IMG/VR virus record: IMGVR_UViG_3300026737_000001
Strand: one strand, 5' to 3'
Source: a virus
Taxonomy: Duplodnaviria; Heunggongvirae; Uroviricota; Caudoviricetes
DNA length: 44,386 nucleotides
Positions 6,228-40,628 of this stretch are shown here, piece by piece. The position numbers and the translations under genes were made by a program. Below the pieces are notes generated by a model that worked only from the letters and a program-made list of their open reading frames with translations, was not told where the DNA came from and searched no databases. Numbering within the stretch: position 1 is the stretch's first letter; every line of letters starts with the position of its first letter.

Positions 6228-7844
6228 TTATGCCTCCTTTTTACCTGGTTTAAATAAATCTCTGACCTCACTTTTGTGAATAGTTAAACCACAGCTTTTA
6301 TGCTCAGGACAGTAACCTATAACCTGACATTTAGGCTTGATATATTCTCCAAAGATAGGCCATTTGGCCACAACCTGGTTTCTCATCTGCCAGACAATAT
6401 CTCTTATTTCCCACTGAGCTCTGGTACATAACCTTTCTTTTGCTAAATCCATAAGTGAATGAAGGTTAATCATTACATCTATTTCTGTTTCAGTTGAATT
6501 TGGAAGTATAAATCTTGCGTCTTCTTTTGGTATCCCCATTTCAACAAATTGATTATATAAATCATGGAGCTTAGAAATCATTTCATCATATTCATAGTGA
6601 GTAAAACTCTCTTTTTTGATGGTATCTGGTGTTACATAACCAAAACCATCCTCATTTACATAGCGCTGTGAACGCTGAGAATTGTGTACAACAAAACCAT
6701 TAGCTATAAAATTATGATGTGGATTTTTCATTTCTAAATCATAAGTCATTTCTTTTCCTGAATATTCAATGCTTTTAATTTCTGAAAGTCTTATTTGTTT
6801 AACTTTTACTCCATAATGCTGGACTGCGTGGCATGTTCTACAAAGCTCTATTAAATTATCATCTGAATCATTTGAAGGGTTTTTATCTATATGATGAACT
6901 TCGGTAAATTTAGTTTCTTTATCGCAAATTTCACATTTATATTTTCTATCAAAATGCCTCTGGACACGAGTATATCCACCAGTATTTTTGATATTATTTC
7001 CTTTCCATTGATGATTTTTTTCTCCTACAAATTTTTCACCTTTTTTATAATTAGGGTTATTTTCTCCTTTTAATTTTTCAGAGCTTATTTTCATTGGTTT
7101 ATAATTATCTTTTGTTTTTCCTTTATTTGGCGGCTCAACACCTAAAGACCAACTTCCTAACTCTTTTTGTAAATTATATTTTCTAATCCATTTCCTAATA
7201 GTGTGATGAGAACAGTTACATAAAGTGGCAATCTTTTTTTGTGATAAATTTTCTTTGTGATATTTTTTTTCTAACCAGTTTTTATCCATATATAATGGCT
7301 CTCCATTTGTGTAAATTATATCTCCTTCTTTTATGTTTTTTAATCTTTTCCAGCCGTTATCTGTTAAAAATTTATGCTCTTTTGTAGATTTTATACTATA
7401 ACCATCTTTTGTTTTTACAGTATAAACATCTTTTATACCAGATTTTATTATGGATATTGGTTTATTTTTAGTAATTATTTTATTTTCTTCATCAACACAT
7501 CTTACGTTTGTGTGTTTTAATCCATTAATTGTAGTATTATAGAGTTCTTTGAGTGTCTTAGGATGTACACTACCATTTTGATAGTCTGAATATATTCTTG
7601 TATCACCACTTAAACAAAAACTTACCCCCGCTCTTTTTCTTACAAGCTGATGAGAAAACACTCTGCTTCCCTTTTTGATATTAAAATGAAAAGCTGCAAA
7701 CTCAGCCATAGAATTATGTCCTGAATTCAATACATTTCTGACTAGCTCTTTTGTCGGTTCCGAATCATAGCAACGACTGGCAGCCATCGCTATACTCATT
7801 ACTGGATTATTTGATGTTCCTTCCTCTAATAAGGTCACCTTCAT
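6228..7844 (-). CDS. thyX: Flavin-dependent thymidylate synthase interrupted by an intein
   Basis: After intein removal the exteins read SRVFSHQLVRKRAGVSF|SQRSQRYV...EDARFILPN...RLCTRAQWEIR...CPEHKSCG. Confidence 0.93.
   Translation of the reverse strand: MKVTLLEEGTSNNPVMSIAMAASRCYDSEPTKELVRNVLNSGHNSMAEFAAFHFNIKKGSRVFSHQLVRKRAGVSFCLSGDTRIYSDYQNGSVHPKTLKELYNTTINGLKHTNVRCVDEENKIITKNKPISIIKSGIKDVYTVKTKDGYSIKSTKEHKFLTDNGWKRLKNIKEGDIIYTNGEPLYMDKNWLEKKYHKENLSQKKIATLCNCSHHTIRKWIRKYNLQKELGSWSLGVEPPNKGKTKDNYKPMKISSEKLKGENNPNYKKGEKFVGEKNHQWKGNNIKNTGGYTRVQRHFDRKYKCEICDKETKFTEVHHIDKNPSNDSDDNLIELCRTCHAVQHYGVKVKQIRLSEIKSIEYSGKEMTYDLEMKNPHHNFIANGFVVHNSQRSQRYVNEDGFGYVTPDTIKKESFTHYEYDEMISKLHDLYNQFVEMGIPKEDARFILPNSTETEIDVMINLHSLMDLAKERLCTRAQWEIRDIVWQMRNQVVAKWPIFGEYIKPKCQVIGYCPEHKSCGLTIHKSEVRDLFKPGKKEA
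6681..7616 (-). mobile_element. Intein (312 aa) with HTH and HNH endonuclease domains, in thyX
   Basis: Starts CLSGDT, ends HHNFIANGFVVHN, +1 Ser. Internal CEIC...EVHHIDKNPSND...NLIELCRTCH. Confidence 0.92.
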
Positions 7845-8740: not shown

Positions 8741-11569
8741 CTAAATAGCCCTCTTACTTTTGTCACTATAAATCATAAACTTTGAATACTTCATAGGTAT
8801 TTCATCTATAAACCTTGAAGGCTTTTTATCTACAAACTGATAGAACTGAAATCTTCTCTTGCAGTAGGTAAGAAACAATCTTTCTTCAGCTCTTGTCATA
8901 GCTACATAGCATAATCTTCTTTCCTCTTCCTCTCCGTCAGGCTCTTCAAGTGAGAACTTGTGAGGGAATGTCTCTTCTTCCATCCCAACCATGAACACTA
9001 CAGGAAATTCTAAACCTTTGGCTGCATGTACAGTCATTAATTTAACCTTATCTGAGTCCTGGTCGAGCTGGTCTTGGTCACTTATAAGCTTTACATTTTG
9101 CAGAAAGTCTACAAGTGAATCATCGTTGGAATTTTTCTCAACATAGTTATTAACAAAATCAAAAAATGCTTCTACATTCTTCATTCTGTTTTCATAAGTT
9201 TCTTCATCCTGTAGTAATATATCTTCAAAGTGAACGTCTTCGTATATTTTTAGTATTGTCTCCTGCAGGCCTAGGTCTTCTTTCCTAATCTCTATAATCG
9301 GCTTCAGGTATTCATCAAACATCTTTAATACTGCCTCCCCCTTTACTTTACCTATACCCTTTACAGATGAGGGAAACTTTACTACGTCTATCAGAGGAAG
9401 CATTGTATTGTAGCTGTGTTCAAGCATTTTTGCTACAGTTACAGGACCTATGCCGTTACTCTCTAGATTTATTATTCTATTTAAACTAGGAGAGTCTTCA
9501 ACATTTGCAGTCAATCTAATAAATGCTAGAAGGTCTTTTATTTCTTTTCTATCAAAAAACCCTGTACCTTTAACAACTGTGTAAGGTATTCCTGCATTAA
9601 CAAAAGCTGTTTCGAAATTCTGCGACTGATAATTACTTCTATAAAGAAGTGTAATATCTTTATAGTCATAATTATTTGCATCTGTAAGAGTTTTGATTGT
9701 ATTGACTATAAAGTCAGCCTCTTTATATGAGTCAAATGTTTCAGCTATAACTATAGGAAACCCGGGCTTAGCTTTAGTAAAAGCAACTTTCTCTCTTCTT
9801 TTTTTATTGTTTTTAACTACCTCATTTGAGGCTTCTATAATGTTAGATGTGCTTCTGTAATTTCTTTCAAGTTTTATTATATTTACATTTTTATACTCTT
9901 TTTCAAAATCTATTATATTCTGGATATCAGAACCCCTAAATCCATAAATACTATTGCAGGTTACAATTCCATCCGCTATATATTTGTGATATTTATCAAC
10001 ATTTAAACTATAAACAGGTCCATCATAATCATAAATTCTAAGCTTTTTTATTTTTTTCCACTCTGTCTTCTTTCCTTTAATATGGACTGGAACTTTCATA
10101 AGTTCTGGAATAAAATTGCATGCTTTTATTTTTATAATAGATTTTCCGCCACGTCTTTGGTAAACATTTTCAACGTCAAAAAATGGAAATTCTATTTCTC
10201 TGTCGTGGTCTTTGAGGCATTTTTTTGCATTTTTATAAAGTCTTTCATATGATAAGTTTTCATAAACAGAACTTATTACTTCTTTTGTTAAATAACCATT
10301 AGTCGCTCCGTCATTTGTTTCCTGAAAAGTTAATTGTGGAATTCCATACCTGCTAGCAATAATACTTTCCCAGGCAAATGCTTCTTTTTTAGTTTTTACA
10401 ACCTTTAAAATCCATGCTTTATCTGCTTTTTCGATTCTTGACCTAACTCCTAAATGAAATCCCCCATCTGCTTTAAATAATTGACACCATCCTACTCTAA
10501 ATTTGTCATCTTTTTGCATCAAGTAGACTACATTATAGTTAGTAGATTTATTTGTCCACTTAACAAGCCATTTATGGTTATAAGTTGATTTAGATATTTT
10601 GCCATCTTCAGTTTCTATTTCATACATTTTGCCTTTGTAATTTCTCATACCTTTTTTAATTTCGTAACCATAATCATCACTTAATCCAATTACATAAGAA
10701 CCACGCCTGTCATAGCTAGGAACCTTGTCAACACCAGGCTCTAAGTCTTTGATTTTTTTGTAACCTTTAGTAGTTAAGACTTCGGTATTTGGTGGTTGGC
10801 ACTGGTCGGAATCACCTACGGCCATAATATTTTTGTGTTTATCTGCCAGCATCTTAAGTATTATATACTGACTGTGATTTGTGTCTTGATACTCATCACA
10901 CTGAATATACTTAAATTTATTTTGATAGTGTTCTAAAACTTCAGGATATTTTCTAAACAGATAAATTGTTTTTGTTATCAGGTCAGTAAAGTCAAAGGCA
11001 TTATTTTTCTTTAACCTTTTATAATATTCCTTGTATATCTTCTGGATATACCTATCTCTTTCAAAAGGCTCTCTACCAAGCTTTTGCAGATAATTAGCAA
11101 ATGATATTAAGTTTCTTTTAGCTTCTGTTATTTTAAAGAATACTTTTTTATCTTCATAGACTTTATCATCAAGCCCCATTGAGTTTATGATATCGTTTAC
11201 TATTTTTACAGAGTCATCAGTGTCATATATGAGGTAGTTTGGTTTGTAGCCTATCTTATCTAAGTTCTCGCTTAAGATTTTCAAACACATTGAGTGAAAA
11301 GTCCCAATCCACATGCTTGATATATCACAGTCTACAATCTTTTTTACTCTATCTTCCATCTCGCTTGCTGCCTTATTTGTAAAGGTTACAGTTAGGATTT
11401 CAGAAGGAAAAATACCTTCTTTAATAAGTCTTGCTATACGATATGTGATAACTCTTGTTTTTCCACTACCAGCCCCGGCAACAACAAGTGACGGCCCTTT
11501 ATCGTGCAAAACTGCTTCTTTTTGTTTCTTGTTTAAATCAAGTGTTAAATTCAATATTTGCACCTCCAT
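8741..11569 (-). CDS. pcrA: PcrA/UvrD superfamily-1 helicase interrupted by an intein
   Basis: VVAGAGSGKT; TFTNKAA; DEYQDTN; VGDSDQ|SIYGFRG; LERNYRS; LMTVHAAKGLEF; EEERRLCYVAMTRA. Confidence 0.95.
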   Translation of the reverse strand: MEVQILNLTLDLNKKQKEAVLHDKGPSLVVAGAGSGKTRVITYRIARLIKEGIFPSEILTVTFTNKAASEMEDRVKKIVDCDISSMWIGTFHSMCLKILSENLDKIGYKPNYLIYDTDDSVKIVNDIINSMGLDDKVYEDKKVFFKITEAKRNLISFANYLQKLGREPFERDRYIQKIYKEYYKRLKKNNAFDFTDLITKTIYLFRKYPEVLEHYQNKFKYIQCDEYQDTNHSQYIILKMLADKHKNIMAVGDSDQCQPPNTEVLTTKGYKKIKDLEPGVDKVPSYDRRGSYVIGLSDDYGYEIKKGMRNYKGKMYEIETEDGKISKSTYNHKWLVKWTNKSTNYNVVYLMQKDDKFRVGWCQLFKADGGFHLGVRSRIEKADKAWILKVVKTKKEAFAWESIIASRYGIPQLTFQETNDGATNGYLTKEVISSVYENLSYERLYKNAKKCLKDHDREIEFPFFDVENVYQRRGGKSIIKIKACNFIPELMKVPVHIKGKKTEWKKIKKLRIYDYDGPVYSLNVDKYHKYIADGIVTCNSIYGFRGSDIQNIIDFEKEYKNVNIIKLERNYRSTSNIIEASNEVVKNNKKRREKVAFTKAKPGFPIVIAETFDSYKEADFIVNTIKTLTDANNYDYKDITLLYRSNYQSQNFETAFVNAGIPYTVVKGTGFFDRKEIKDLLAFIRLTANVEDSPSLNRIINLESNGIGPVTVAKMLEHSYNTMLPLIDVVKFPSSVKGIGKVKGEAVLKMFDEYLKPIIEIRKEDLGLQETILKIYEDVHFEDILLQDEETYENRMKNVEAFFDFVNNYVEKNSNDDSLVDFLQNVKLISDQDQLDQDSDKVKLMTVHAAKGLEFPVVFMVGMEEETFPHKFSLEEPDGEEEERRLCYVAMTRAEERLFLTYCKRRFQFYQFVDKKPSRFIDEIPMKYSKFMIYSDKSKRAI
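9953..10801 (-). mobile_element. Intein (283 aa) in helicase motif III
   Basis: Starts CQPPNTEV, ends VYSLNVDKYHKYIADGIVTCN, +1 Ser. Removing it restores GDSDQSIYGFRG. Confidence 0.92.
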
Positions 11570-18240: not shown

Positions 18241-19497
18241 CTAACCTTTAATAACTGCAATAGTTTTTAGTTCATCAATCACGGATACTAAATCTTTTTG
18301 ATTTTCCATAACCTGATGAATGTCTTTATATGCCTTCATGTATTCTTCTGCAACATCTTTTTTATTAGTTTTACCAAGTACAACATTCTTTTCTTTTAAA
18401 TCTTCCATAACCTCTTGCACTGAATATTCTTCTTTGGCTGCAGTTCTGGTGTGAGTTCTCCCGGCTCCATGGCTGCAGGACTTGAATGAAGCATCATTCC
18501 CAAGACCCTGAGCAATAAAGGAAGATGAACCCATTGCTCCTGGAATAGGCACCATATCTGTACCTCTGGCCCGCACAGCTCCTTTCCTATGCACCATGTA
18601 GTTAACACCGTTCACATTTTCATAGGCAGCATAATTGTGGTGGACATTTAATCTTCTTGTAATTTTATAATTATCAATAAGACCTCTTTTTTTAAGTAAA
18701 TCAATAGTCTTATTTAGAACTAAATCCATAATTTTATCTCTATTTAACTCAGCAACTTTTAAGGCAAAATTCATGAATTTCATATATTCCTGACCCTCAT
18801 CACTATCGAGTGGTAAAAAGGGCATTGTTACATCATCAGATAAAACATCAACATACCATTTTTTATTTAAACTTTTTGCTAACTTACTAAAATGAGAGTT
18901 TATTTTAGCGCCAACACTTCTGGAGCCGGTGTGAATCATAATTGCAAGATTACCCTCTTTGTTTTCCTGCAGCTCAACGAAGTGGTTGCCACCTCCTAGA
19001 CTTCCAACAATTTCCATAGACTCCATGACAGCTTCCATTAAAAGAGGTTTTTCTTCAATATCTCCACCATAGTTTAAATTATTAATTAGATTTAGAAGCT
19101 CCATGTTATCTTTGTTTTCTTCTTTTTTGCAGTGCTGAAATCCTGTTGGTAAATCTCTCATAATTGACCCAACCAGTTCCTGAGCAACTGTTCCTGAATC
19201 CATGTGTGTTGTTTGCATAAAGCAGGCCTCAATATCTGTCTGTATAAAGGCGACACCGCACCCTATATCGTTCGAGACTGCATCAGGTACTATAACATCC
19301 TTTGTAGCTAAAACCCCGCCAACTGGCATATGGTAGCCCGTAGCGTGTACATCAGGCATCAATGCTATGTGTGATTTAGCGTATGGGAGCTTTGATATTT
19401 CTACTGCTTCTTTAAATGTGTTATCATCTAAATCTTCACTTTCATCAATCCAGACTTTAACAGGCAAGCCTGTATATAAACCATTAAAAGTGTACAT
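18241..19497 (-). CDS. rtcB: RtcB family RNA 2',3'-cyclic phosphate/5'-OH ligase
   Basis: MPDVH; DIGCG; SLGGGNHFVE; IHTGSR; VHHNY; VHRKGA; SCSHGAGR; AYKDI. Confidence 0.96.
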   Translation of the reverse strand: MYTFNGLYTGLPVKVWIDESEDLDDNTFKEAVEISKLPYAKSHIALMPDVHATGYHMPVGGVLATKDVIVPDAVSNDIGCGVAFIQTDIEACFMQTTHMDSGTVAQELVGSIMRDLPTGFQHCKKEENKDNMELLNLINNLNYGGDIEEKPLLMEAVMESMEIVGSLGGGNHFVELQENKEGNLAIMIHTGSRSVGAKINSHFSKLAKSLNKKWYVDVLSDDVTMPFLPLDSDEGQEYMKFMNFALKVAELNRDKIMDLVLNKTIDLLKKRGLIDNYKITRRLNVHHNYAAYENVNGVNYMVHRKGAVRARGTDMVPIPGAMGSSSFIAQGLGNDASFKSCSHGAGRTHTRTAAKEEYSVQEVMEDLKEKNVVLGKTNKKDVAEEYMKAYKDIHQVMENQKDLVSVIDELKTIAVIKG

Positions 19498-33113: not shown

Positions 33114-33590
33114 TTATTGCAATTTGGACATTTTTTGTGATACATTTTTACCACCTAACATTTTTAAAGATTTAATGTAGTCATGGTTATCAAAACCTGT
33201 TTTTCTTTTTACATGTATTAACCTGTCTAAAAATGGCTCCATATCTCTATCGTCGTCAATTATTATAAAGTCTTCTATATTTTTATTTAACTTTAAATAC
33301 TTTTTGATTTCTGCACCCCTTGTAGATTCTAAAAAGGGAGTTCTCCCAACTATATTTCTTGTTTTTAGATTGTTTTTTTTAAAAACTTTTATAACCTTTT
33401 CCATGTTGTAACGCCACGTACTTGAGATTACTACATCTGCACTCTTTACACTTGTAAGCATGTTTATTAAGAATACAGATTGAGGTATAAAAATTTTATC
33501 TGCATCTTCTTTATTTCCTTTAAGATAATTTTCTTCTATAGATTTAGTTGAATTTAAAACTCCATCTATATCTAAAAAAATAGTACTCAT
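33114..33590 (-). CDS. HAD phosphatase of the 'Swiss Army Knife RNA repair' type (HAD_SAK_2-like)
   Basis: IFLDIDGVLN; VISSTWR; GRTP...RGAEI; IIIDDD; GF. Confidence 0.8.
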   Translation of the reverse strand: MSTIFLDIDGVLNSTKSIEENYLKGNKEDADKIFIPQSVFLINMLTSVKSADVVISSTWRYNMEKVIKVFKKNNLKTRNIVGRTPFLESTRGAEIKKYLKLNKNIEDFIIIDDDRDMEPFLDRLIHVKRKTGFDNHDYIKSLKMLGGKNVSQKMSKLQ

Positions 33591-35027: not shown

Positions 35028-35948
35028 TTAGAATGCATTACTTTCAATCATCTTATCCAAAACTTTAATACATCTTTTTGGAACTTCTTTGTGTAGAATA
35101 TTAAAGTTTACATCTTTTATTCTATTATCCTCATAGATTTCAAGAATATTTTCTCTTAAAAAATCCTTGATAACTCTCGGGATAAGCTTATGCATTAAAG
35201 TTCTTTCAAGCTTATGTCCTTCATCAACAACCATTTTAGCTATTATCTTTTTAATTCTCGCCTCATTTACATAAAGCTCAACTGCTAAAGGAGTGTCTGT
35301 TTCTTTAGGCTTTGGCTTTTTAGCTTTAGCTTTTTGTCTTTCCAAATACTCGTCATTTAAAACTTTGGCAAATAGAGGCTCATTGTATTGGCTTAACCTG
35401 TTATAATTTTTAATAACATAACCTTCAGGCTTTTTTGAGTTGTACTTAGAAATTTCTAAAAGTTTATCTCTGTCCATCCCAAGATATTCTTCCATTGTTC
35501 CCTCAAATAAGATATTTACAAATTCTAAACCCAGACTTTCAAAAGTCTTTTTGGCGACTTTATAATCAAGTGGCATTCCAGTTTCTTTATCAAGAAGGTC
35601 AAACCCTATAAATGGTGGATGATTATCAAAATCATAATTTACTATGTGTTTTTTCATTGCCTCTCCGACATAAATAATATCTCTGCCAAGAGCATTTACA
35701 TCAAGCTTTTTATTTAAATATTCAATCTGTTTACCCCATCCATCACGAGGTCTGACATCTTTAACTTTTCTAGAACCGTATACAATCCTATCTCCTTCTC
35801 TCCAGAACCTAAAGTTACTGCCGTCAATTTTTTCTTCAATTACAATTTCATCCTCTTTGTAATTTGTAATCTCTTGATTGCTACTACTGCCTAAGATATA
35901 AATTTTGTTGTACTCTCTTAATTCCTCTAACTTATCTTTATCCATCAA
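35028..35948 (-). CDS. ATP-dependent RNA ligase, Rnl2-like
   Basis: Nucleotidyltransferase motifs EKIDGSN, YGSR, VGE, FIGFD, EGYVIK, AKV. The helical C-domain (YVNEARI...I.K) resembles that of Rnl2. Confidence 0.85.
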   Translation of the reverse strand: MMDKDKLEELREYNKIYILGSSSNQEITNYKEDEIVIEEKIDGSNFRFWREGDRIVYGSRKVKDVRPRDGWGKQIEYLNKKLDVNALGRDIIYVGEAMKKHIVNYDFDNHPPFIGFDLLDKETGMPLDYKVAKKTFESLGLEFVNILFEGTMEEYLGMDRDKLLEISKYNSKKPEGYVIKNYNRLSQYNEPLFAKVLNDEYLERQKAKAKKPKPKETDTPLAVELYVNEARIKKIIAKMVVDEGHKLERTLMHKLIPRVIKDFLRENILEIYEDNRIKDVNFNILHKEVPKRCIKVLDKMIESNAF

Positions 35949-36421: not shown

Positions 36422-36453
36422 AAAAAAAAGACAGACCGATTAAGGCCTGCCTT
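36422..36453 (-). terminator. Intrinsic terminator ending the RNA cluster-neuB-DUF2828 transcript
   Basis: AAGGCAGGCC-ttaatc-GGTCTGTCTT-TTTTTT. Confidence 0.85.
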
Positions 36454-36463
36454 AGTAATTTTA

Positions 36464-37969
36464 TTAAACTGTAATTCTATCGTACTGTTCGTCTGTGATT
36501 ACATCGAGCATCAAGTCGTAGGCGGAAACAAACTCACCCTTCATTGTGTGCTCAAAAACAACTGGAGAAGCTCCGCTTACAAGCTGGAATCCTCTTTCGT
36601 CTTTGTCAAACTGAAAAACTTCATTTCTTGCTTCAACATTCCAGAAGACTAAATCCGGCATTTTGTAGCCATAATATTTGAATGATTCCTTTAACTTTTC
36701 AAAAAGTGTTTTAGTTACTTTGTTACGAGAACTAAGTCCATAACTATTATTTGTACACTGGTCAAATTCCATATCAGAAATAATGTATAACTTTTGAGGT
36801 ATTTCATCCTGATGGAGATGATTTTCTATAGCAGTATCTAAAATAAGATTAAATACAGCTTCGATATCGGTATTCATATCCCAGTGAGCTCTTCTCATGT
36901 TCTTAATTTTCTGCACAAAATCACTGCCTTCTACTTTTACTAAATCAGGACTGGCAGAGAAGGTAATAAACCTATCTTTAAAGGGTCCTGAGTTTCTTTC
37001 TGCCATATATAATCCTAATGAAAGGGCAATATGAAGTGGCAACCCATCTGAGCTCATCATAGAGCCTGAAGTATCTACAACGCAAATAGAATTTTCATTT
37101 TTATCATTGATATAATCAGGCAATGCTTTCCACTGCTCATTTAAAACATCTCTTTCACTTTCAGAAACTGAATGGCCCCAACCAACACCGATAACTTTTC
37201 TTACTAAATCATAAGGATATAAAGTTGAAGCATTAATTTTGTCCTCTCCAGACTTAACATTTTCAATATATTCATGGTAGCCTTCAGGGTCATGTCTTTC
37301 AAAAGCATTATTGTAAATCATTTGTGCTCTTGAAGGAACAGATGAGTAGTCAATATCTTCCCAGTCATTATTCGACATTTTTCTTTCGACAACACCTATT
37401 TTCTTTCTTAGCTTAGAAAGTGTTTTTCTATATCCTCTTGCTGTCATCTCAAAATGTTTTCTGGTTTTTTTGGCAAGTCTTTTTGTTTCGTCTGAGCTTG
37501 CATTTTCTGATTTAAGCCATTTTGCTAATAAGCTTGGTTTTTCAGAATTGATATCCTTAAAGAACTGGGCTTTCATAAAATTTGCTGCATAGCCTTCAAG
37601 TCTTGTATCAAATAAGGCATATAAATCGTCCCATCGACCATAATGAGGTATGTGTTCTAAGTTTTTTAGAACTACCTCAGGCTTTACCTGTGTCAGATAT
37701 TTTAAAATAACTCTAAATATTCTTCTTTCTCCTAGCCCACCCCTAACATTTCTGGCATAAAAAAGAGTTTTTACTGCTAGAAGGTCATCTTCTGTTAAAG
37801 CCTTATCAAAAAGCCTTATAATATCTTCTTTATTCCTGTTTCTTAAAGCTCCCACCTGAGCAAAGAAATCGAGTAGGTTATCTTTAGTTGTATGTTTTGC
37901 TGTTGCACCATTTTCTGTTGCTGTGTAATTAACTTTATCTTCCATTGCGTCTAAAAATTTATTTGACAT
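36464..37969 (-). CDS. DUF2828-type TROVE/Ro60-like RNA-binding protein with a C-terminal vWA domain
   Basis: TENGA; LDFF; LFYARNVRGGLGER; YGRWDDL; LAKW; YRK; VPS; INASTLYPYDL; MIDAS motif VVDTSGSM; ISDMEFD; VFWNV. Confidence 0.85.
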   Translation of the reverse strand: MSNKFLDAMEDKVNYTATENGATAKHTTKDNLLDFFAQVGALRNRNKEDIIRLFDKALTEDDLLAVKTLFYARNVRGGLGERRIFRVILKYLTQVKPEVVLKNLEHIPHYGRWDDLYALFDTRLEGYAANFMKAQFFKDINSEKPSLLAKWLKSENASSDETKRLAKKTRKHFEMTARGYRKTLSKLRKKIGVVERKMSNNDWEDIDYSSVPSRAQMIYNNAFERHDPEGYHEYIENVKSGEDKINASTLYPYDLVRKVIGVGWGHSVSESERDVLNEQWKALPDYINDKNENSICVVDTSGSMMSSDGLPLHIALSLGLYMAERNSGPFKDRFITFSASPDLVKVEGSDFVQKIKNMRRAHWDMNTDIEAVFNLILDTAIENHLHQDEIPQKLYIISDMEFDQCTNNSYGLSSRNKVTKTLFEKLKESFKYYGYKMPDLVFWNVEARNEVFQFDKDERGFQLVSGASPVVFEHTMKGEFVSAYDLMLDVITDEQYDRITV

Positions 37970-37997
37970 ATTAATAATCCCCCTTTTGTTTTTATAC

Positions 37998-38052
37998 TAG
38001 GCACATATTTTGTTGGATTTACAGTCCTTGATTTGGTTGCTGATTGTGCCTA
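37998..38052 (-). ncRNA. CAGCAA hairpin H1 carrying a Tyr(GUA) anticodon stem-loop
   Basis: UAGGCACA-AU-CAGCAA...GGA-CUGUAAA-UCC...AAAAUA-UGUGCCUA, with a perfect 8-bp closing stem. Confidence 0.8.
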
Positions 38053-38077
38053 AATTTAATTCCTAAGACTCTACTAC

Positions 38078-38143
38078 AAGACAGTATCCGCATTTCGCGG
38101 GTTTTATGATACCTTCATAAGAATTGGTTGCTGCATCTGTCTT
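38078..38143 (-). ncRNA. CAGCAA hairpin H2
   Basis: AAGACAG-AUG-CAGCAA...UUAUGA/UCAUAA hairpin, CCGC-GAAA-U-GCGG hairpin...AUA-CUGUCUU. Confidence 0.75.
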
Positions 38144-38188
38144 TAATTTGAAAGGAGTGTTGGTTAACTTAATTTAATTGCCGGCTGA

Positions 38189-38319
38189 TGGTGGCAGTAG
38201 CAGGATTTGAACCTACGTCTTTTCTTTTACATAGAATTGTTAGTTGTAGTTTGCTGTAAGGGCCCGCCGGCCTATGCCCATTAACTTTGTTTGCTCTCTA
38301 CCAGTTGAGCTATACTGCC
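38189..38319 (-). ncRNA. tRNA-like RNA A (131 nt) with a CAGCAA insert and a local UUCU-AUGUAAA-AGAA loop
   Basis: Acceptor GGCAGUA/UACUGCC + ACCA; D arm GCUC/GAGC; T arm GUAGG-UUCAAAU-CCUGC. Confidence 0.85.
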
Positions 38320-38327
38320 ATATATAC

Positions 38328-38391
38328 AAGGCACCATTACTATTGGATTCAAATTGGAAGTTTGATTTAGTAAGTTTGCTGTTGGCGCCTT
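38328..38391 (-). ncRNA. CAGCAA hairpin H4 carrying a Gly(UCC) anticodon stem-loop
   Basis: AAGGCGCCA-A-CAGCAA...UUACUA..UCAAA-CUUCCAA-UUUGA..UAGUAA-UGGUGCCUU. Confidence 0.8.
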
Positions 38392-38399
38392 TAAGATTT

Positions 38400-39221
38400 T
38401 TATTTTCTAAGTTTTTCTTTTACTTTTTCTTCAGATTCATAAACTTTAATATTATCACTCCCGAGCCAGTTATCAACTCTGTTAAGATTGTCGATAAGCT
38501 CTTTTAGCTCTTTGTATTCTAGACTTGCACTGTGGTCGCTGCCCCACATATCCTTATCTAGAGTGATATGTCTTTCAATTATCTCAGCTCCTAAAACTTT
38601 AGCTGCTATTGTCGGTTGAATCCCTTTTTCGTGGCCGCTGTAACCTATAATATTTAAAGGATACTTTTCTTTAAGTCTTTCAATTATTCTTAAGTCAAGC
38701 TCATTCTCAGCTGATGGATAACTGCTGTTGCAGTGCATGATACTTAACTTATCTTCATATCCTTCAAAAACATTAACTGCTTTATCAATTTCTTCTTCTG
38801 TACTCATACCAGTGGATAAAACTACAGGGATTCCTGTCTTTCTTACAGCTTCTAAAAGCTTCATATCTGTGATTGAGGCACTAGCAATTTTTATGAACGG
38901 CACATTAAAATCAGTTAGAAATTCAAGAGAGTCAATATCCCATACACTTGCTGTCCATTTAACTCCCAGCTTGTGACAGTAAGCATTCAGTGCTACATAT
39001 TCGCTATAACCAAATTCCATTCTGTATTTATAATCAATATAGTCCATCTCACCCCACGGTGTTTTTTTCTTTTTATGCCACTGGTCTTTGGGCACACACT
39101 TTTTAGGGTTTCTTTTCTGAAATTTAACTACATCTGCTCCAGCTTTATATGCCATATCTATTAACTCATAGGCATACTCTAAATTTCCGTTATGATTAAT
39201 ACCAATCTCTGCTATAAACAA
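38400..39221 (-). CDS. neuB: NeuB-family nonulosonic-acid synthase (no C-terminal SAF/AFP domain)
   Basis: FIAEIGINHNG; ADVVKFQ; KIASA; LSTGMS; MHCNSSYP; GYSGHE; IERHITL; DHSASL. Confidence 0.9.
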   Translation of the reverse strand: MFIAEIGINHNGNLEYAYELIDMAYKAGADVVKFQKRNPKKCVPKDQWHKKKKTPWGEMDYIDYKYRMEFGYSEYVALNAYCHKLGVKWTASVWDIDSLEFLTDFNVPFIKIASASITDMKLLEAVRKTGIPVVLSTGMSTEEEIDKAVNVFEGYEDKLSIMHCNSSYPSAENELDLRIIERLKEKYPLNIIGYSGHEKGIQPTIAAKVLGAEIIERHITLDKDMWGSDHSASLEYKELKELIDNLNRVDNWLGSDNIKVYESEEKVKEKLRK

Positions 39222-39342
39222 ATTTTACACCTCTTTATACAAAATTAACCGGGTTTAAAAGCACCGGCAAGTTCGAAAGAATATATTATAATGAACAAAA
39301 TCATAAAGATAAACTGACACCAAGATATCGCCCTTTAATGAC

Positions 39343-39420
39343 AAGACGGCTCAGGGATAAAAAAGTGTCAGTCTTATTCGTCTTTTATTATATAATAGTT
39401 TGGTTGCTGTGTGCCGTCTT
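39343..39420 (-). ncRNA. CAGCAA hairpin H5, upstream of neuB
   Basis: AAGACGGC-ACA-CAGCAA...GCCGUCUU, perfect 8-bp stem. Confidence 0.75.
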
Positions 39421-39457
39421 TAAAAATTACAAAAAATTAATCTTTAATTCCTAAAGT

Positions 39458-39580
39458 TGGTGGAGAGTGGTGGATTCGAACCACCATGGTCATCGACCGC
39501 AGGCTTTTCACTTTTTTTGCTGTTAATGTTTAATCTAAACATATTTTGGCCGGTACCTTTGCCATTAGGAGAATCTCTCC
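39458..39580 (-). ncRNA. tRNA-like RNA B: Tyr-type body with a 37-nt CAGCAA insert in the anticodon loop
   Basis: GGAGAGA/ACUCUCC + ACCA; variable arm GGUC-GAU-GACC; T arm GGUGG-UUCGAAU-CCACC; the 3' loop side reads U-GAA-AA. Confidence 0.85.
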
Positions 39581-39588
39581 TTAAAAAA

Positions 39589-39706
39589 TGGTCGAAGGGG
39601 CAGGATTCGAACCTGCAACAAGCTCCTCCTCAAGGAAAATTGATTGCTGTTAACGCTTAAAACTAAGCATATATTTTAGCTGCTCTACCAGTTGAGCTAC
39701 CCTTCG
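39589..39706 (-). ncRNA. tRNA-like RNA C (C1-G72, A73) with a CAGCAA insert and a Leu(GAG)-like loop
   Basis: CGAAGGG/CCCUUCG + ACCA; canonical D and T arms; UUCC-UUGAGGA-GGAG. Confidence 0.85.
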
Positions 39707-39718
39707 AAAAATTGTAAT

Positions 39719-39837
39719 TGGTGAGGACGGGAGTTGAACCCGCGAATCCCGGCTTGACATAGAAGAATTGCTGTTGGTGACTAAACTAGTCACACTTTCT
39801 TTTTGCGCCGGAGCCTTTCCATCTTGGCTACCTCACC
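39719..39837 (-). ncRNA. tRNA-like RNA D with a 46-nt CAGCAA insert; Asp(GUC) triplet retained
   Basis: GGUGAGG/CCUCACC + A (CCA not encoded); CCGGC/GCCGG stem spans the insert; the 3' loop side reads U-GUC-AA. Confidence 0.85.
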
Positions 39838-39847
39838 GTAAATTAAC

Positions 39848-40056
39848 CCGTCGCAACAGCTAGCCCACAGAGCTCGGCAGTTGTTTCCATGTATTTCCTA
39901 AGCCTGGCAGTTTGTTTTTAATATTGTAGCCAGGCTGTTTACATGTTGCTGACAGATTAATTTTGAATTAAGCCCTCTGGCAATTTTGTAGAGGAATCTT
40001 AATTCTGTCGCATTTATTTGAAGATAGTTTAAATTGCCAAAAACTATCACTGCGGC
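39848..40056 (-). ncRNA. ~210-nt multi-hairpin structured RNA G of unknown family
   Basis: Several perfect 6-8 bp stems and complementary loops (see findings); lies between two tRNA-type genes. Confidence 0.7.
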
Positions 40057-40062
40057 TAAAGT

Positions 40063-40154
40063 TGGCAGAAGGAGAGGGATTTGAACCCTCGATACCCATT
40101 AAGGTATAACAGATTTCAAATCTGTCTTCATAAACCAGACTCGAACATCCTTCT
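40063..40154 (-). tRNA. tRNA-Ser(UGA)
   Basis: AGAAGGA/UCCUUCU + GCCA; ACAGA-UUUGAAA-UCUGU; long variable arm. Confidence 0.95.
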
Positions 40155-40163
40155 ATATAAAAA

Positions 40164-40278
40164 TGACCGGGAGAGCAGGATTCGAACCTGCGACACGCTC
40201 CTTTAATGGGATGTGATTGCTGTTAATACCTTATACAAGACATATTTTAGCTGCTCTAGCCTGCTGAGCTATCTCCCG
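40164..40278 (-). ncRNA. tRNA-like RNA E, paralog of C, with a CAGCAA insert; ends G-UCA
   Basis: CGGGAGA/UCUCCCG; D and T arms nearly identical to those of C; UCC-CAUUAAA-GGA loop. Confidence 0.85.
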
Positions 40279-40284
40279 AAAAAA

Positions 40285-40369
40285 TGGAGGAAGAGAGGGG
40301 ATTTGAACCCCTGAACCTGTCGGTAACAGTTTAGCAAACTGTCTCCTTAAACCACTCGGACACTCTTCC
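40285..40369 (-). tRNA. tRNA-Ser(GCU)
   Basis: GGAAGAG/CUCUUCC + UCCA; ACAGU-UUGCUAA-ACUGU; variable arm. The discriminator is U rather than the usual G. Confidence 0.92.
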
Positions 40370-40599: not shown

Positions 40600-40628
40600 A
40601 TTATATCATACTTCACTACATTTTTCAA
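40600..40628 (-). promoter_or_regulatory. Strong sigmaA-type promoter driving the RNA cluster
   Basis: TTGAAA-N17-TATAAT with an extended -10 TG and an AT-rich upstream region, about 20 nt before RNA F. Confidence 0.85.

Follow-up and report, generated by a model that had tools for sequence, protein, structure and literature searches.

The window analysed here is the whole 44,386-nucleotide (nt) stretch of IMG/VR virus record IMGVR_UViG_3300026737_000001 (Caudoviricetes). All genes in its RNA-cluster part lie on the minus strand, and this part includes five tRNA-shaped RNAs, called A to E here (38189–40278), which carry, as a sequence-only reading of this DNA had claimed, an insert in the anticodon arm, with measured lengths of 37–54 nt. 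The gene of a DUF2828 protein with a predicted Ro60-like fold lies downstream of the cluster on the same strand, within a few kb. Within each insert, a hairpin and the heptamer ACAGCAA form what we call the module; the parts of the five RNAs are as follows.

38189–38319, minus strand: RNA A, tRNA-shaped, with A73 and an encoded CCA (Rfam tRNA model 43.6 bits over 38192–38319, covariance model R1 56.6 bits, parsed by hand)
38237–38290, minus strand: insert of A, 54 nt, 5' of the stem-loop UUCU-AUGUAAA-AGAA (triplet GUA; parsed by hand)
38251–38272, minus strand: module of A, a divergent hairpin of 4 base pairs (bp), GGCC/GGCC (38261–38272), then 3 nt (CUU) and ACAGCAA (38251–38257)
39458–39580, minus strand: RNA B, tRNA-like, with a long variable arm, a degenerate D arm and an encoded CCA (R1 37.7 bits)
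39512–39548, minus strand: insert of B, 37 nt; loop GUGAAAA (triplet GAA)
39517–39542, minus strand: module of B, a 7-bp hairpin (39526–39542), UA and ACAGCAA (39517–39523)
39589–39706, minus strand: RNA C, a tRNA body with C1-G72, A73 and CCA (Rfam tRNA 47.5 bits over 39592–39706)
39636–39677, minus strand: insert of C, 42 nt, at positions 29/30 of the stem GCU^CC/GGAGC; loop UUGAGGA (triplet GAG, G37)
39644–39670, minus strand: module of C, a 7-bp hairpin (39653–39670), UA and ACAGCAA (39644–39650)
39719–39837, minus strand: RNA D, a tRNA body with A73, CCA not encoded (Rfam tRNA 44.3 bits, R1 58.4 bits)
39761–39806, minus strand: insert of D, 46 nt, at the 5' edge of the loop AUGUCAA (triplet GUC); complete 5-bp anticodon stem CCGGC/GCCGG
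39768–39793, minus strand: module of D, a 7-bp hairpin (39777–39793), CA and ACAGCAA (39768–39774)
40167–40278, minus strand: RNA E, a paralogue of C with identical D, anticodon-stem and T sequences, G73 and no CCA (Rfam tRNA 43.7 bits)
40211–40248, minus strand: insert of E, 38 nt, at positions 29/30; loop CAUUAAA (triplet UUA), without U33
40217–40243, minus strand: module of E, a 7-bp hairpin (40226–40243), UA and ACAGCAA (40217–40223)

The sequence-only reading had given all five RNAs normal acceptor, D and T arms; acceptor and T arms are indeed present throughout, and D arms in A, C, D and E, but that of B is degenerate; B otherwise has an acceptor stem with 6/7 pairs and a perfect T arm, besides a long variable hairpin and an encoded CCA. 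The gathering score of the Rfam tRNA family RF00005 (29 bits) is exceeded by four of the five (A, C, D and E), with 49–71 nt skipped in the anticodon arm. RNA B is matched neither by the Rfam tRNA model nor by ARAGORN, which calls only two ordinary tRNA-Ser in the RNA-cluster part (40285–40369 and 40063–40154) and none of A–E. Minimum free energy folds of the RNAs recover the acceptor arm, the T arm and the hairpin. The inserts of B–E are built in one order, an A-rich linker, a 7-bp hairpin with a 3–4-nt loop, 2 nt and ACAGCAA, and the helices proposed for them earlier proved exact (AUGUUUA/UAAACAU, AUGCUUA/UAAGCGU, GUGACUA/UAGUCAC and AUGUCUU/AAGGUAU, respectively), as did the triplets GUA, GAA, GAG and GUC at the anticodon position of A to D. 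Where the insert enters differs among the five: in C and E, GCU after position 26 and CC before the loop jointly pair with GGAGC (5/5 pairs); in B and D, the anticodon stem is complete, with the insert at its 3' edge, at 31/32 and not at 32/33 as previously placed, although its lengths of 37 and 46 nt were given correctly; in A, the insert falls at about 27/28, with a single nucleotide (A27) on its 5' side and the four inner pairs UUCU/AGAA following it. None of A–E has a continuous 5-bp anticodon stem with a 7-nt loop that contains U33 and a purine at 37.

The window has 47 copies of the hexamer CAGCAA where 22.9 are expected, an excess that is not due to chance, as none of 100 shuffles reached this count, and ten non-coding copies lie on one strand within 38037–40222. 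A blastn search with the 2.5-kb RNA region of the window found no match in phage records. Besides the embedded copies, the hexamer is found in free-standing hairpins:

37997–38053, minus strand: free module H1, UUAGGCACA-AU-CAGCAA ... UGUGCCUAG, enclosing a Tyr-like anticodon hairpin, within the leader of the DUF2828 gene
38078–38143, minus strand: free module H2, AAGACAG-AUG-CAGCAA ... CUGUCUU
38328–38391, minus strand: free module H4, AAGGCGCCA-A-CAGCAA ... UGGUGCCUU, enclosing a UCC anticodon-like hairpin
39343–39420, minus strand: free module H5, AAGACGGC-ACA-CAGCAA ... GCCGUCUU

The general form of the free hairpins in the window is 5' AAGRCAC, 2–3 nt, CAGCAA, an enclosed cargo and GUGYCUU-G 3'. 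In the embedded RNAs, the strand beside ACAGCAA (UAAGCGU, UAGUCAC, AAGGUAU, UAAACAU) agrees with the 5'-strand consensus of the free modules (AAGGCAC, AAGACAC, UAGGCAC), and its partner, which forms the 3' end of the free RNAs (GUGCCUU-G), sits just upstream, across a 3–4-nt loop starting with G; this loop-initial G corresponds to the trailing G at the free 3' end. Since the embedded hairpin matches the free closing helix strand by strand in swapped order, the earlier suggestion of a permuted module holds: the embedded module is a circular permutation of the free one, with a capped helix on the protein side and an open acceptor end. One further stretch of the cluster, on the minus strand between tRNA-Ser(UGA) and RNA D (39840–40060, about 220 nt), is non-coding and structured, with one CAGCAA, several long hairpins and no Rfam match.

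A free-type module was present beside the DUF2828 gene, on the same strand, in nine of the twelve DUF2828 loci examined. Such modules were seen in an IMG/VR contig, Bacillus phages 2S-4 and PBC2, two metagenomic relatives (58–59% identity to the DUF2828 protein of the window), a 98% relative, Felixounavirus VpaE1, Listeria phage P100 and mycobacteriophage Wamburgrxpress. Several free modules, found in phages of Bacillus, Escherichia and Mycobacterium, follow the design of the bacterial YrlA RNAs in that their cargo consists of a T arm, an acceptor-like hairpin that is closed, and a D arm; two of them align over the full length of the Rfam YrlA model at 37.8–39.8 bits, under its cut-off of 69 bits. 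The cultured phages PBC2, VpaE1, P100 and Wamburgrxpress contain free and YrlA-type modules only, and no embedded form. A third topology is seen in PBC2 (L005:4312–4445), where a CAGCAA helix, AAGGCAC ... GUGCCUU, surrounds D, anticodon and T arms like those of tRNA-Ile(GAU); this RNA has no acceptor stem of its own, and the Rfam tRNA model aligns with it at model positions 6–65 only. A YrlA-type RNA of the same phage (L144; 150450–150740 of the record, minus strand) has ACAGCUA in place of ACAGCAA, so that the heptamer is not absolutely invariant outside the set of copies that were selected by a search pattern. In P100, a match to ROOL RNA of 86 bits (gathering score 99.1) lies inside the tRNA array (L125:4465–5016), about 1 kb upstream of the DUF2828 gene. 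In GenBank records KT070867.1 (L005) and NC_007610.1 (L125), the deposited tRNA features are on the strand opposite to their placement by ARAGORN and Rfam, which is probably an annotation error in the records.

We searched for further embedded RNAs with an RNA-only pattern (D-arm heptamer, gap, ACAGCAA, gap, T-loop), and at least 113 IMG/VR stretches matched it. Among the matches listed, 98 copies were parsed, and good acceptor and T stems are present in 88 of these; the insertion point is after position 28 in 32 copies and after position 29 in 34, within a range of 26–31 across the family, 31/32 and about 27/28 being less common variants; the 5-bp anticodon stem re-forms round a canonical 7-nt loop in most members; and more than 20 anticodons are displayed (GUU 13, UGU 11, UAC 11, GCU 10, and others). 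We defined the working family by a hairpin of about 7 bp, a spacer of 0–3 nt (usually 2) and ACAGCAA, which describes B–E and leaves A divergent with its 4-bp stem and 3-nt spacer, and by an insert in the 5' strand of the anticodon stem (28–30), which is the case in C and E and makes A, B and D less common variants. The family is further defined by a place within a few kb of a DUF2828 gene and on its strand, which applies to all of A–E. The RNA-only pattern found 122 matches in 596 Gb of cellular genomes, 40 of them well formed, and most of these well-formed copies are on contigs of metagenome-assembled genomes of Lachnospiraceae or Clostridia. A contig of the isolate 'Firmicutes bacterium OM04-13BH' (L182) also has a well-formed copy. 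Each of the two 58–59% relatives has one embedded RNA, a tRNA-Lys(UUU) with the insert at 29/30 and a tRNA-His(GUG) with the insert at 28/29, the latter keeping the bacterial His identity pair G-1:C73. The score of covariance model R1 was rejected as a test of membership, since A, B and D reach 37.7–58.4 bits, yet ordinary tRNAs of other phages reach 45–58 bits; the aligned module alone is informative.

In a comparison of homologs, which had been named as a check on the idea, covariation of the helices proved strong. A perfect hairpin of at least 7 bp, ending 0–3 nt before ACAGCAA, is present in 34 of 45 non-redundant copies, compared with 4.7% of shuffles. In an alignment of 25 diverse copies, standard pairs fill 98.1% of the cells, against 64% when the partners were shuffled and about 43% when they were slid, and compensatory changes occur in 7/7 pairs of the hairpin, 4/4 pairs of the split anticodon stem and 7/7 pairs of the acceptor stem. 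ACAGCAA is invariant in 45 of 45 aligned copies, but the collecting pattern itself demanded this heptamer as well as a particular D-arm heptamer, which biases both the invariance and the range of isotypes. One relative, with 31 differences (0.94%) over the 3.3-kb locus, has no change in the 431-nt stretch that includes A and three free modules. The displayed anticodons are not preferentially missing from the tRNA sets nearby: of 21 loci with eight or more ordinary tRNAs, 13 already had an ordinary tRNA with the displayed anticodon. One clade of ten displays GCU on a short-armed body. Near-identical bodies and handles (we call the inserted arm a handle) with different loops were observed in IMG/VR stretches L048, L067 and L091 versus L059 and L029 (UAC versus CAA/AAA-like), and the loop also differs on a near-identical body and handle in C versus E of the window and in L008; this suggests that the displayed loop may swap rapidly on a fixed scaffold.

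The RNAs and the DUF2828 gene occur together well beyond the window, and the features of the protein are as follows.

36464–37969, minus strand: DUF2828/DUF7788 protein of 501 amino acids, with a Ro60-like helical ring and a vWA domain (Pfam, AlphaFold2 model)

DUF2828 is encoded in 44 of 50 viral contigs that were picked by the RNA pattern only, in 12 of the 13 RNA-bearing contigs that are at least 90% complete and in none of 14 control genomes, compared with a background of 711 in 50,697 phage records; the six RNA-bearing contigs without it are mostly fragments. RNA ligases are linked less tightly: in the 13 near-complete genomes with an embedded RNA, a PF09414 ligase is found in nine, RtcB in two, either ligase in ten and neither in three, of which two (G013 and G044) encode DUF2828 and one (G032) lacks it as well. 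The AlphaFold model of the DUF2828 protein (mean predicted local distance difference test score 83.9, 48 homologues in the input) has Ro60/TROVE structures as its 12 best matches in the PDB, all over the full length, with the Ro60 of Thermus phage phiLo ranking best (template modelling score 0.57–0.60), followed by Xenopus Ro60 and Deinococcus Rsr. A sequence search of the protein against the PDB returned nothing, the likeness to Ro60 being detectable by fold only. Going by the predicted structure, DUF2828 is a structural homologue of Ro60, and it is the presumed binding partner of the hairpin-ACAGCAA module.

We propose, with a probability of roughly 60%, that A–E act unspliced as Y-RNA-like partner RNAs of a Ro-like protein and represent a topological variant of YrlA. 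The hairpin-ACAGCAA block is most likely the docking site of the neighbouring Ro60-like protein, and A–E belong to a widespread, phage-borne, seemingly undescribed family of tRNA-shaped RNAs; a literature search found no paper on DUF2828-linked RNAs or on this tRNA-shaped family. The suggestion of the sequence-only reading that these might be permuted, CCA-ended analogues of YrlA is supported by the permutation, by the module shared with YrlA-type RNAs and by the Ro60-like fold of DUF2828. In the proposed mechanism, the RNAs would be freed from a polycistronic tRNA-type transcript by RNase P and 3' processing, the DUF2828 protein would bind the helix and ACAGCAA, and the unspliced RNAs would couple the ring protein to a tRNA-shaped body, which would display a real anticodon stem-loop and an acceptor end. 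The setting would likely be tRNA surveillance, repair or counter-defence by the phage, because genes for RtcB, an Rnl-type ligase and a HAD phosphatase are nearby. These genes and the signals round the cluster are listed here.

18241–19497, minus strand: RtcB RNA ligase
33114–33590, minus strand: HAD phosphatase of the 'Swiss Army Knife' RNA-repair type (PF18143, Pfam)
35028–35948, minus strand: Rnl-type RNA ligase (PF09414, Pfam)
36428–36453, minus strand: terminator-like hairpin with a U tract just 3' of the DUF2828 gene (consensus match only)
40600–40628, minus strand: sigma-70-like promoter upstream of the RNA cluster, TTGAAA, 17 nt, TG-TATAAT, 11/12 matches (consensus match only)

The promoter-like and terminator-like sites bracket the RNA cluster, neuB and the DUF2828 gene, and the cluster and the DUF2828 gene may form one transcription unit. 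The NeuB-family gene (sialic-acid-synthase-like; 38400–39221, minus strand) lies in the middle of the RNA cluster between H5 and H4, and the same order is found in the 98% relative (L006, from JGI 3300031926). PhoH is also encoded in the window. Elsewhere on the minus strand, the genes of ThyX (6228–7844) and of a UvrD-type helicase (8741–11569) have Pfam matches to intein-splicing domains, with HNH and HTH in ThyX, and both genes appear to be interrupted by inteins.

Several observations weigh against unspliced partner RNAs. Most members keep a 7-nt loop, U33, a purine at 37 and a restorable 5-bp stem, as precursors of decoding tRNAs would; one member has the tRNA-His identity pair; RNA ligases are frequent, in 10 of the 13 near-complete genomes, and the window has both RtcB and an Rnl-type ligase. 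In addition, the helix that would close the insert from its A-rich and U-rich parts measures 4.0 bp on average at its best, versus 3.7 bp in shuffled sequences, with no case beating 5% of shuffles, and as it is no better than composition-matched shuffles, a three-way-junction geometry is unproven. The first three points would suit a new type of tRNA intron, in which the module is recognised, perhaps on a DUF2828 platform, and cut out, and an RtcB or Rnl-type ligase rejoins the halves to decoding tRNAs: removal of the insert restores the 5-bp stem and the canonical 7-nt loop in most members, and some bodies match their anticodon (His with G-1:C73, Lys or Val with A73). We consider such an intron possible but rather unlikely, because the module also occurs free-standing and in YrlA-type RNAs, neither of which can be spliced into a tRNA, the insertion point varies (26–31) within a stem strand and is not at 37/38, no bulge-helix-bulge was seen there by eye, no endonuclease candidate was identified, the anticodons are often redundant with ordinary tRNAs nearby, and two near-complete genomes have DUF2828 and an embedded tRNA with neither ligase family. 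An exact 24-mer search of IMG/VR, a narrow test, found no insert-free allele of the Val(UAC) clade. RNA E lacks U33, and the earlier claim that body and anticodon disagree stands in so far as several bodies of the window look mismatched to their loops, but as an argument it is weakened by relatives with matching identity such as the tRNA-His; B and E look unfit for charging or decoding, and A and D are probably unfit. The unspliced, Y-RNA-like reading is favoured over splicing because of the non-tRNA contexts of the module, the variable in-stem insertion site, the redundant anticodons, the exit point of the handle, which is that of the Ro-binding stem in YrlA-type RNAs, and the linkage to DUF2828, which is tighter than that to the ligases.

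The handle-bearing RNAs might also be conditional tRNAs: once docked on the module, the DUF2828 ring would either direct removal of the module, after which RtcB or Rnl would rejoin the ends, or hold and protect the tRNA for later use. We regard this as unlikely, though if true it would be a maturation or protection pathway for tRNAs in phages that depends on a ribonucleoprotein (RNP), with no known precedent in bacteria, and it would show how Y RNAs originated from tRNAs by circular permutation. It is distinctly unlikely that the RNAs are working tRNAs which keep the handle and are still charged and decode, a bound Ro-like protein shielding or marking them, e.g., against host anticodon nucleases. 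The canonical anticodon loops, the open acceptor end, the encoded CCA in A, B and C and the position of the genes inside tRNA arrays would agree with it, but an arm of 40–50 nt leaving the anticodon stem at positions 28–30 should clash with the decoding and P sites of the ribosome, and the redundancy of anticodons, the mismatches between body and loop and the degenerate D arm of B also speak against it. That the module serves RNA processing or stability, or is bound by some other factor, be it a ligase, PhoH or a host protein, and just accompanies the tRNA cluster, seems very doubtful: DUF2828 genes usually lie beside tRNA arrays, so the linkage could be indirect, and six RNA-bearing contigs lack DUF2828; however, the linkage of 12/13 in near-complete genomes extends over phage lineages and hosts that are unrelated, the link to PF09414 and RtcB is far looser, and the arrangement parallels the pairing of Ro60 with Y RNAs (PMC4201824). 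Decaying pseudogenes, or tRNA genes with a small selfish insertion and no function, might be suspected from the missing ARAGORN calls, the poor D arm of B and the non-canonical loop of E, but this is barely credible for a family with more than 100 members, compensatory changes in every helix and an invariant 7-mer, in which, moreover, one relative with differences at 0.94% of the locus positions has the RNA stretch round A unaltered.

The reason for which the Y RNAs of bacteria imitate tRNAs has stood as a question since 2014. The family reported here offers a natural series on one protein-binding module, from bare anticodon hairpins through back-to-front tRNA mimics to complete, open-ended tRNAs with a handle, and this series makes the question testable. 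It also points to a large unannotated class of phage RNPs, with DUF2828 encoded by over 700 sequenced phages, Felix O1-like and Listeria P100-like phages and mycobacteriophages among them; this class probably works on tRNAs during the contest with tRNA-cleaving defences of the host. In addition, the family accounts for a recurring problem of annotation, the oversized or 'pseudo' tRNA genes in phage tRNA arrays.

Compared with known systems, the embedded RNAs resemble classical tRNA introns in having an intervening sequence in the anticodon arm, the removal of which would restore a canonical tRNA. Group I introns, which in bacterial tRNAs lie in the anticodon loop, have a ribozyme core (P3–P9) of more than about 200 nt, whereas the inserts found here (37–54 nt) are far below ribozyme size, and an Rfam search of the window gave no match to Intron_gpI even at E-values up to 1. 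Bulge-helix-bulge introns, of archaeal and eukaryal tRNAs, have that motif at the exon-intron boundaries, typically at 37/38, in contrast to the inserts of this family, which usually lie in the 5' stem strand at 28/29 or 29/30; no bulge-helix-bulge was seen at the inserts by eye, no dedicated search having been run. Lak megaphages have 'enigmatic' tRNA introns (Devoto et al., bioRxiv 10.1101/356790), which are similar in that oversized phage tRNA genes have conserved inserts in the anticodon arm, and a distant homologue of DUF2828 (27% identical) is encoded by Prevotella phage Lak-B7. A tRNA-Tyr(GUA)-like gene of this phage (L140; record 130900–131200) differs, however, in that about 140 nt are inserted in its loop, with a T-arm-like element (the GGUUCGAAUCC hairpin) and no ACAGCAA; this insert may be a distant analogue of the handle. 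The Lak 'introns' were rejected as the same element, no tRNA of the ACAGCAA type having been found in the 550-kb Lak-B7 record.

Among systems with a Ro60-type protein, the best structural match to the window protein is that of Thermus phage phiLo, which has two stem-loop Yrl RNAs, Yrl1 and Yrl2 (PMC12135203; PDB 9KOP, 9L5Y). Both systems have a phage-encoded ring of the Ro60 type with phage partner RNAs upstream of its gene, but the phiLo RNAs were picked by a CGAA motif and are plain stem-loops, and no handle-bearing tRNA is described there (PMC12135203). The YrlA RNAs (RF02553) adjoin Ro60 in bacteria and in 22 phages and have the motif GNCGAA and closed acceptor stems (Chen et al. 2014, PMC4201824); the site at which Ro60 binds Y RNAs consists of a conserved helix and a single-stranded motif (PMC4201824). 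The one RF02553 match in the window (24.7 bits; gathering score 69) runs from the T arm of D into the D arm of C and was discarded as an artefact of their adjacency. YrlA RNAs differ from A–E in four respects: their acceptor is capped and the helix carries the RNA ends, whereas in A–E the acceptor is open (with CCA encoded in 3/5) and the helix is capped; A–E retain a real anticodon stem-loop; the motif is GNCGAA(N0-1)G near the 5' end in YrlA and ACAGCAA in A–E; and the partner protein here is DUF2828, which is similar to Ro60 by fold only. The likeness consists in a body that derives from a tRNA, has T and D arms and is linked to a conserved helix with a short single-stranded motif, and in a locus that adjoins the gene of a ring-shaped TROVE/vWA protein, often with several RNAs, in an RNA-repair neighbourhood. 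In both, finally, the helix emerges at the place of the anticodon stem: the handle leaves the body where the Ro-binding stem leaves the tRNA-like domain of YrlA-type RNAs, which fits a shared three-dimensional arrangement.

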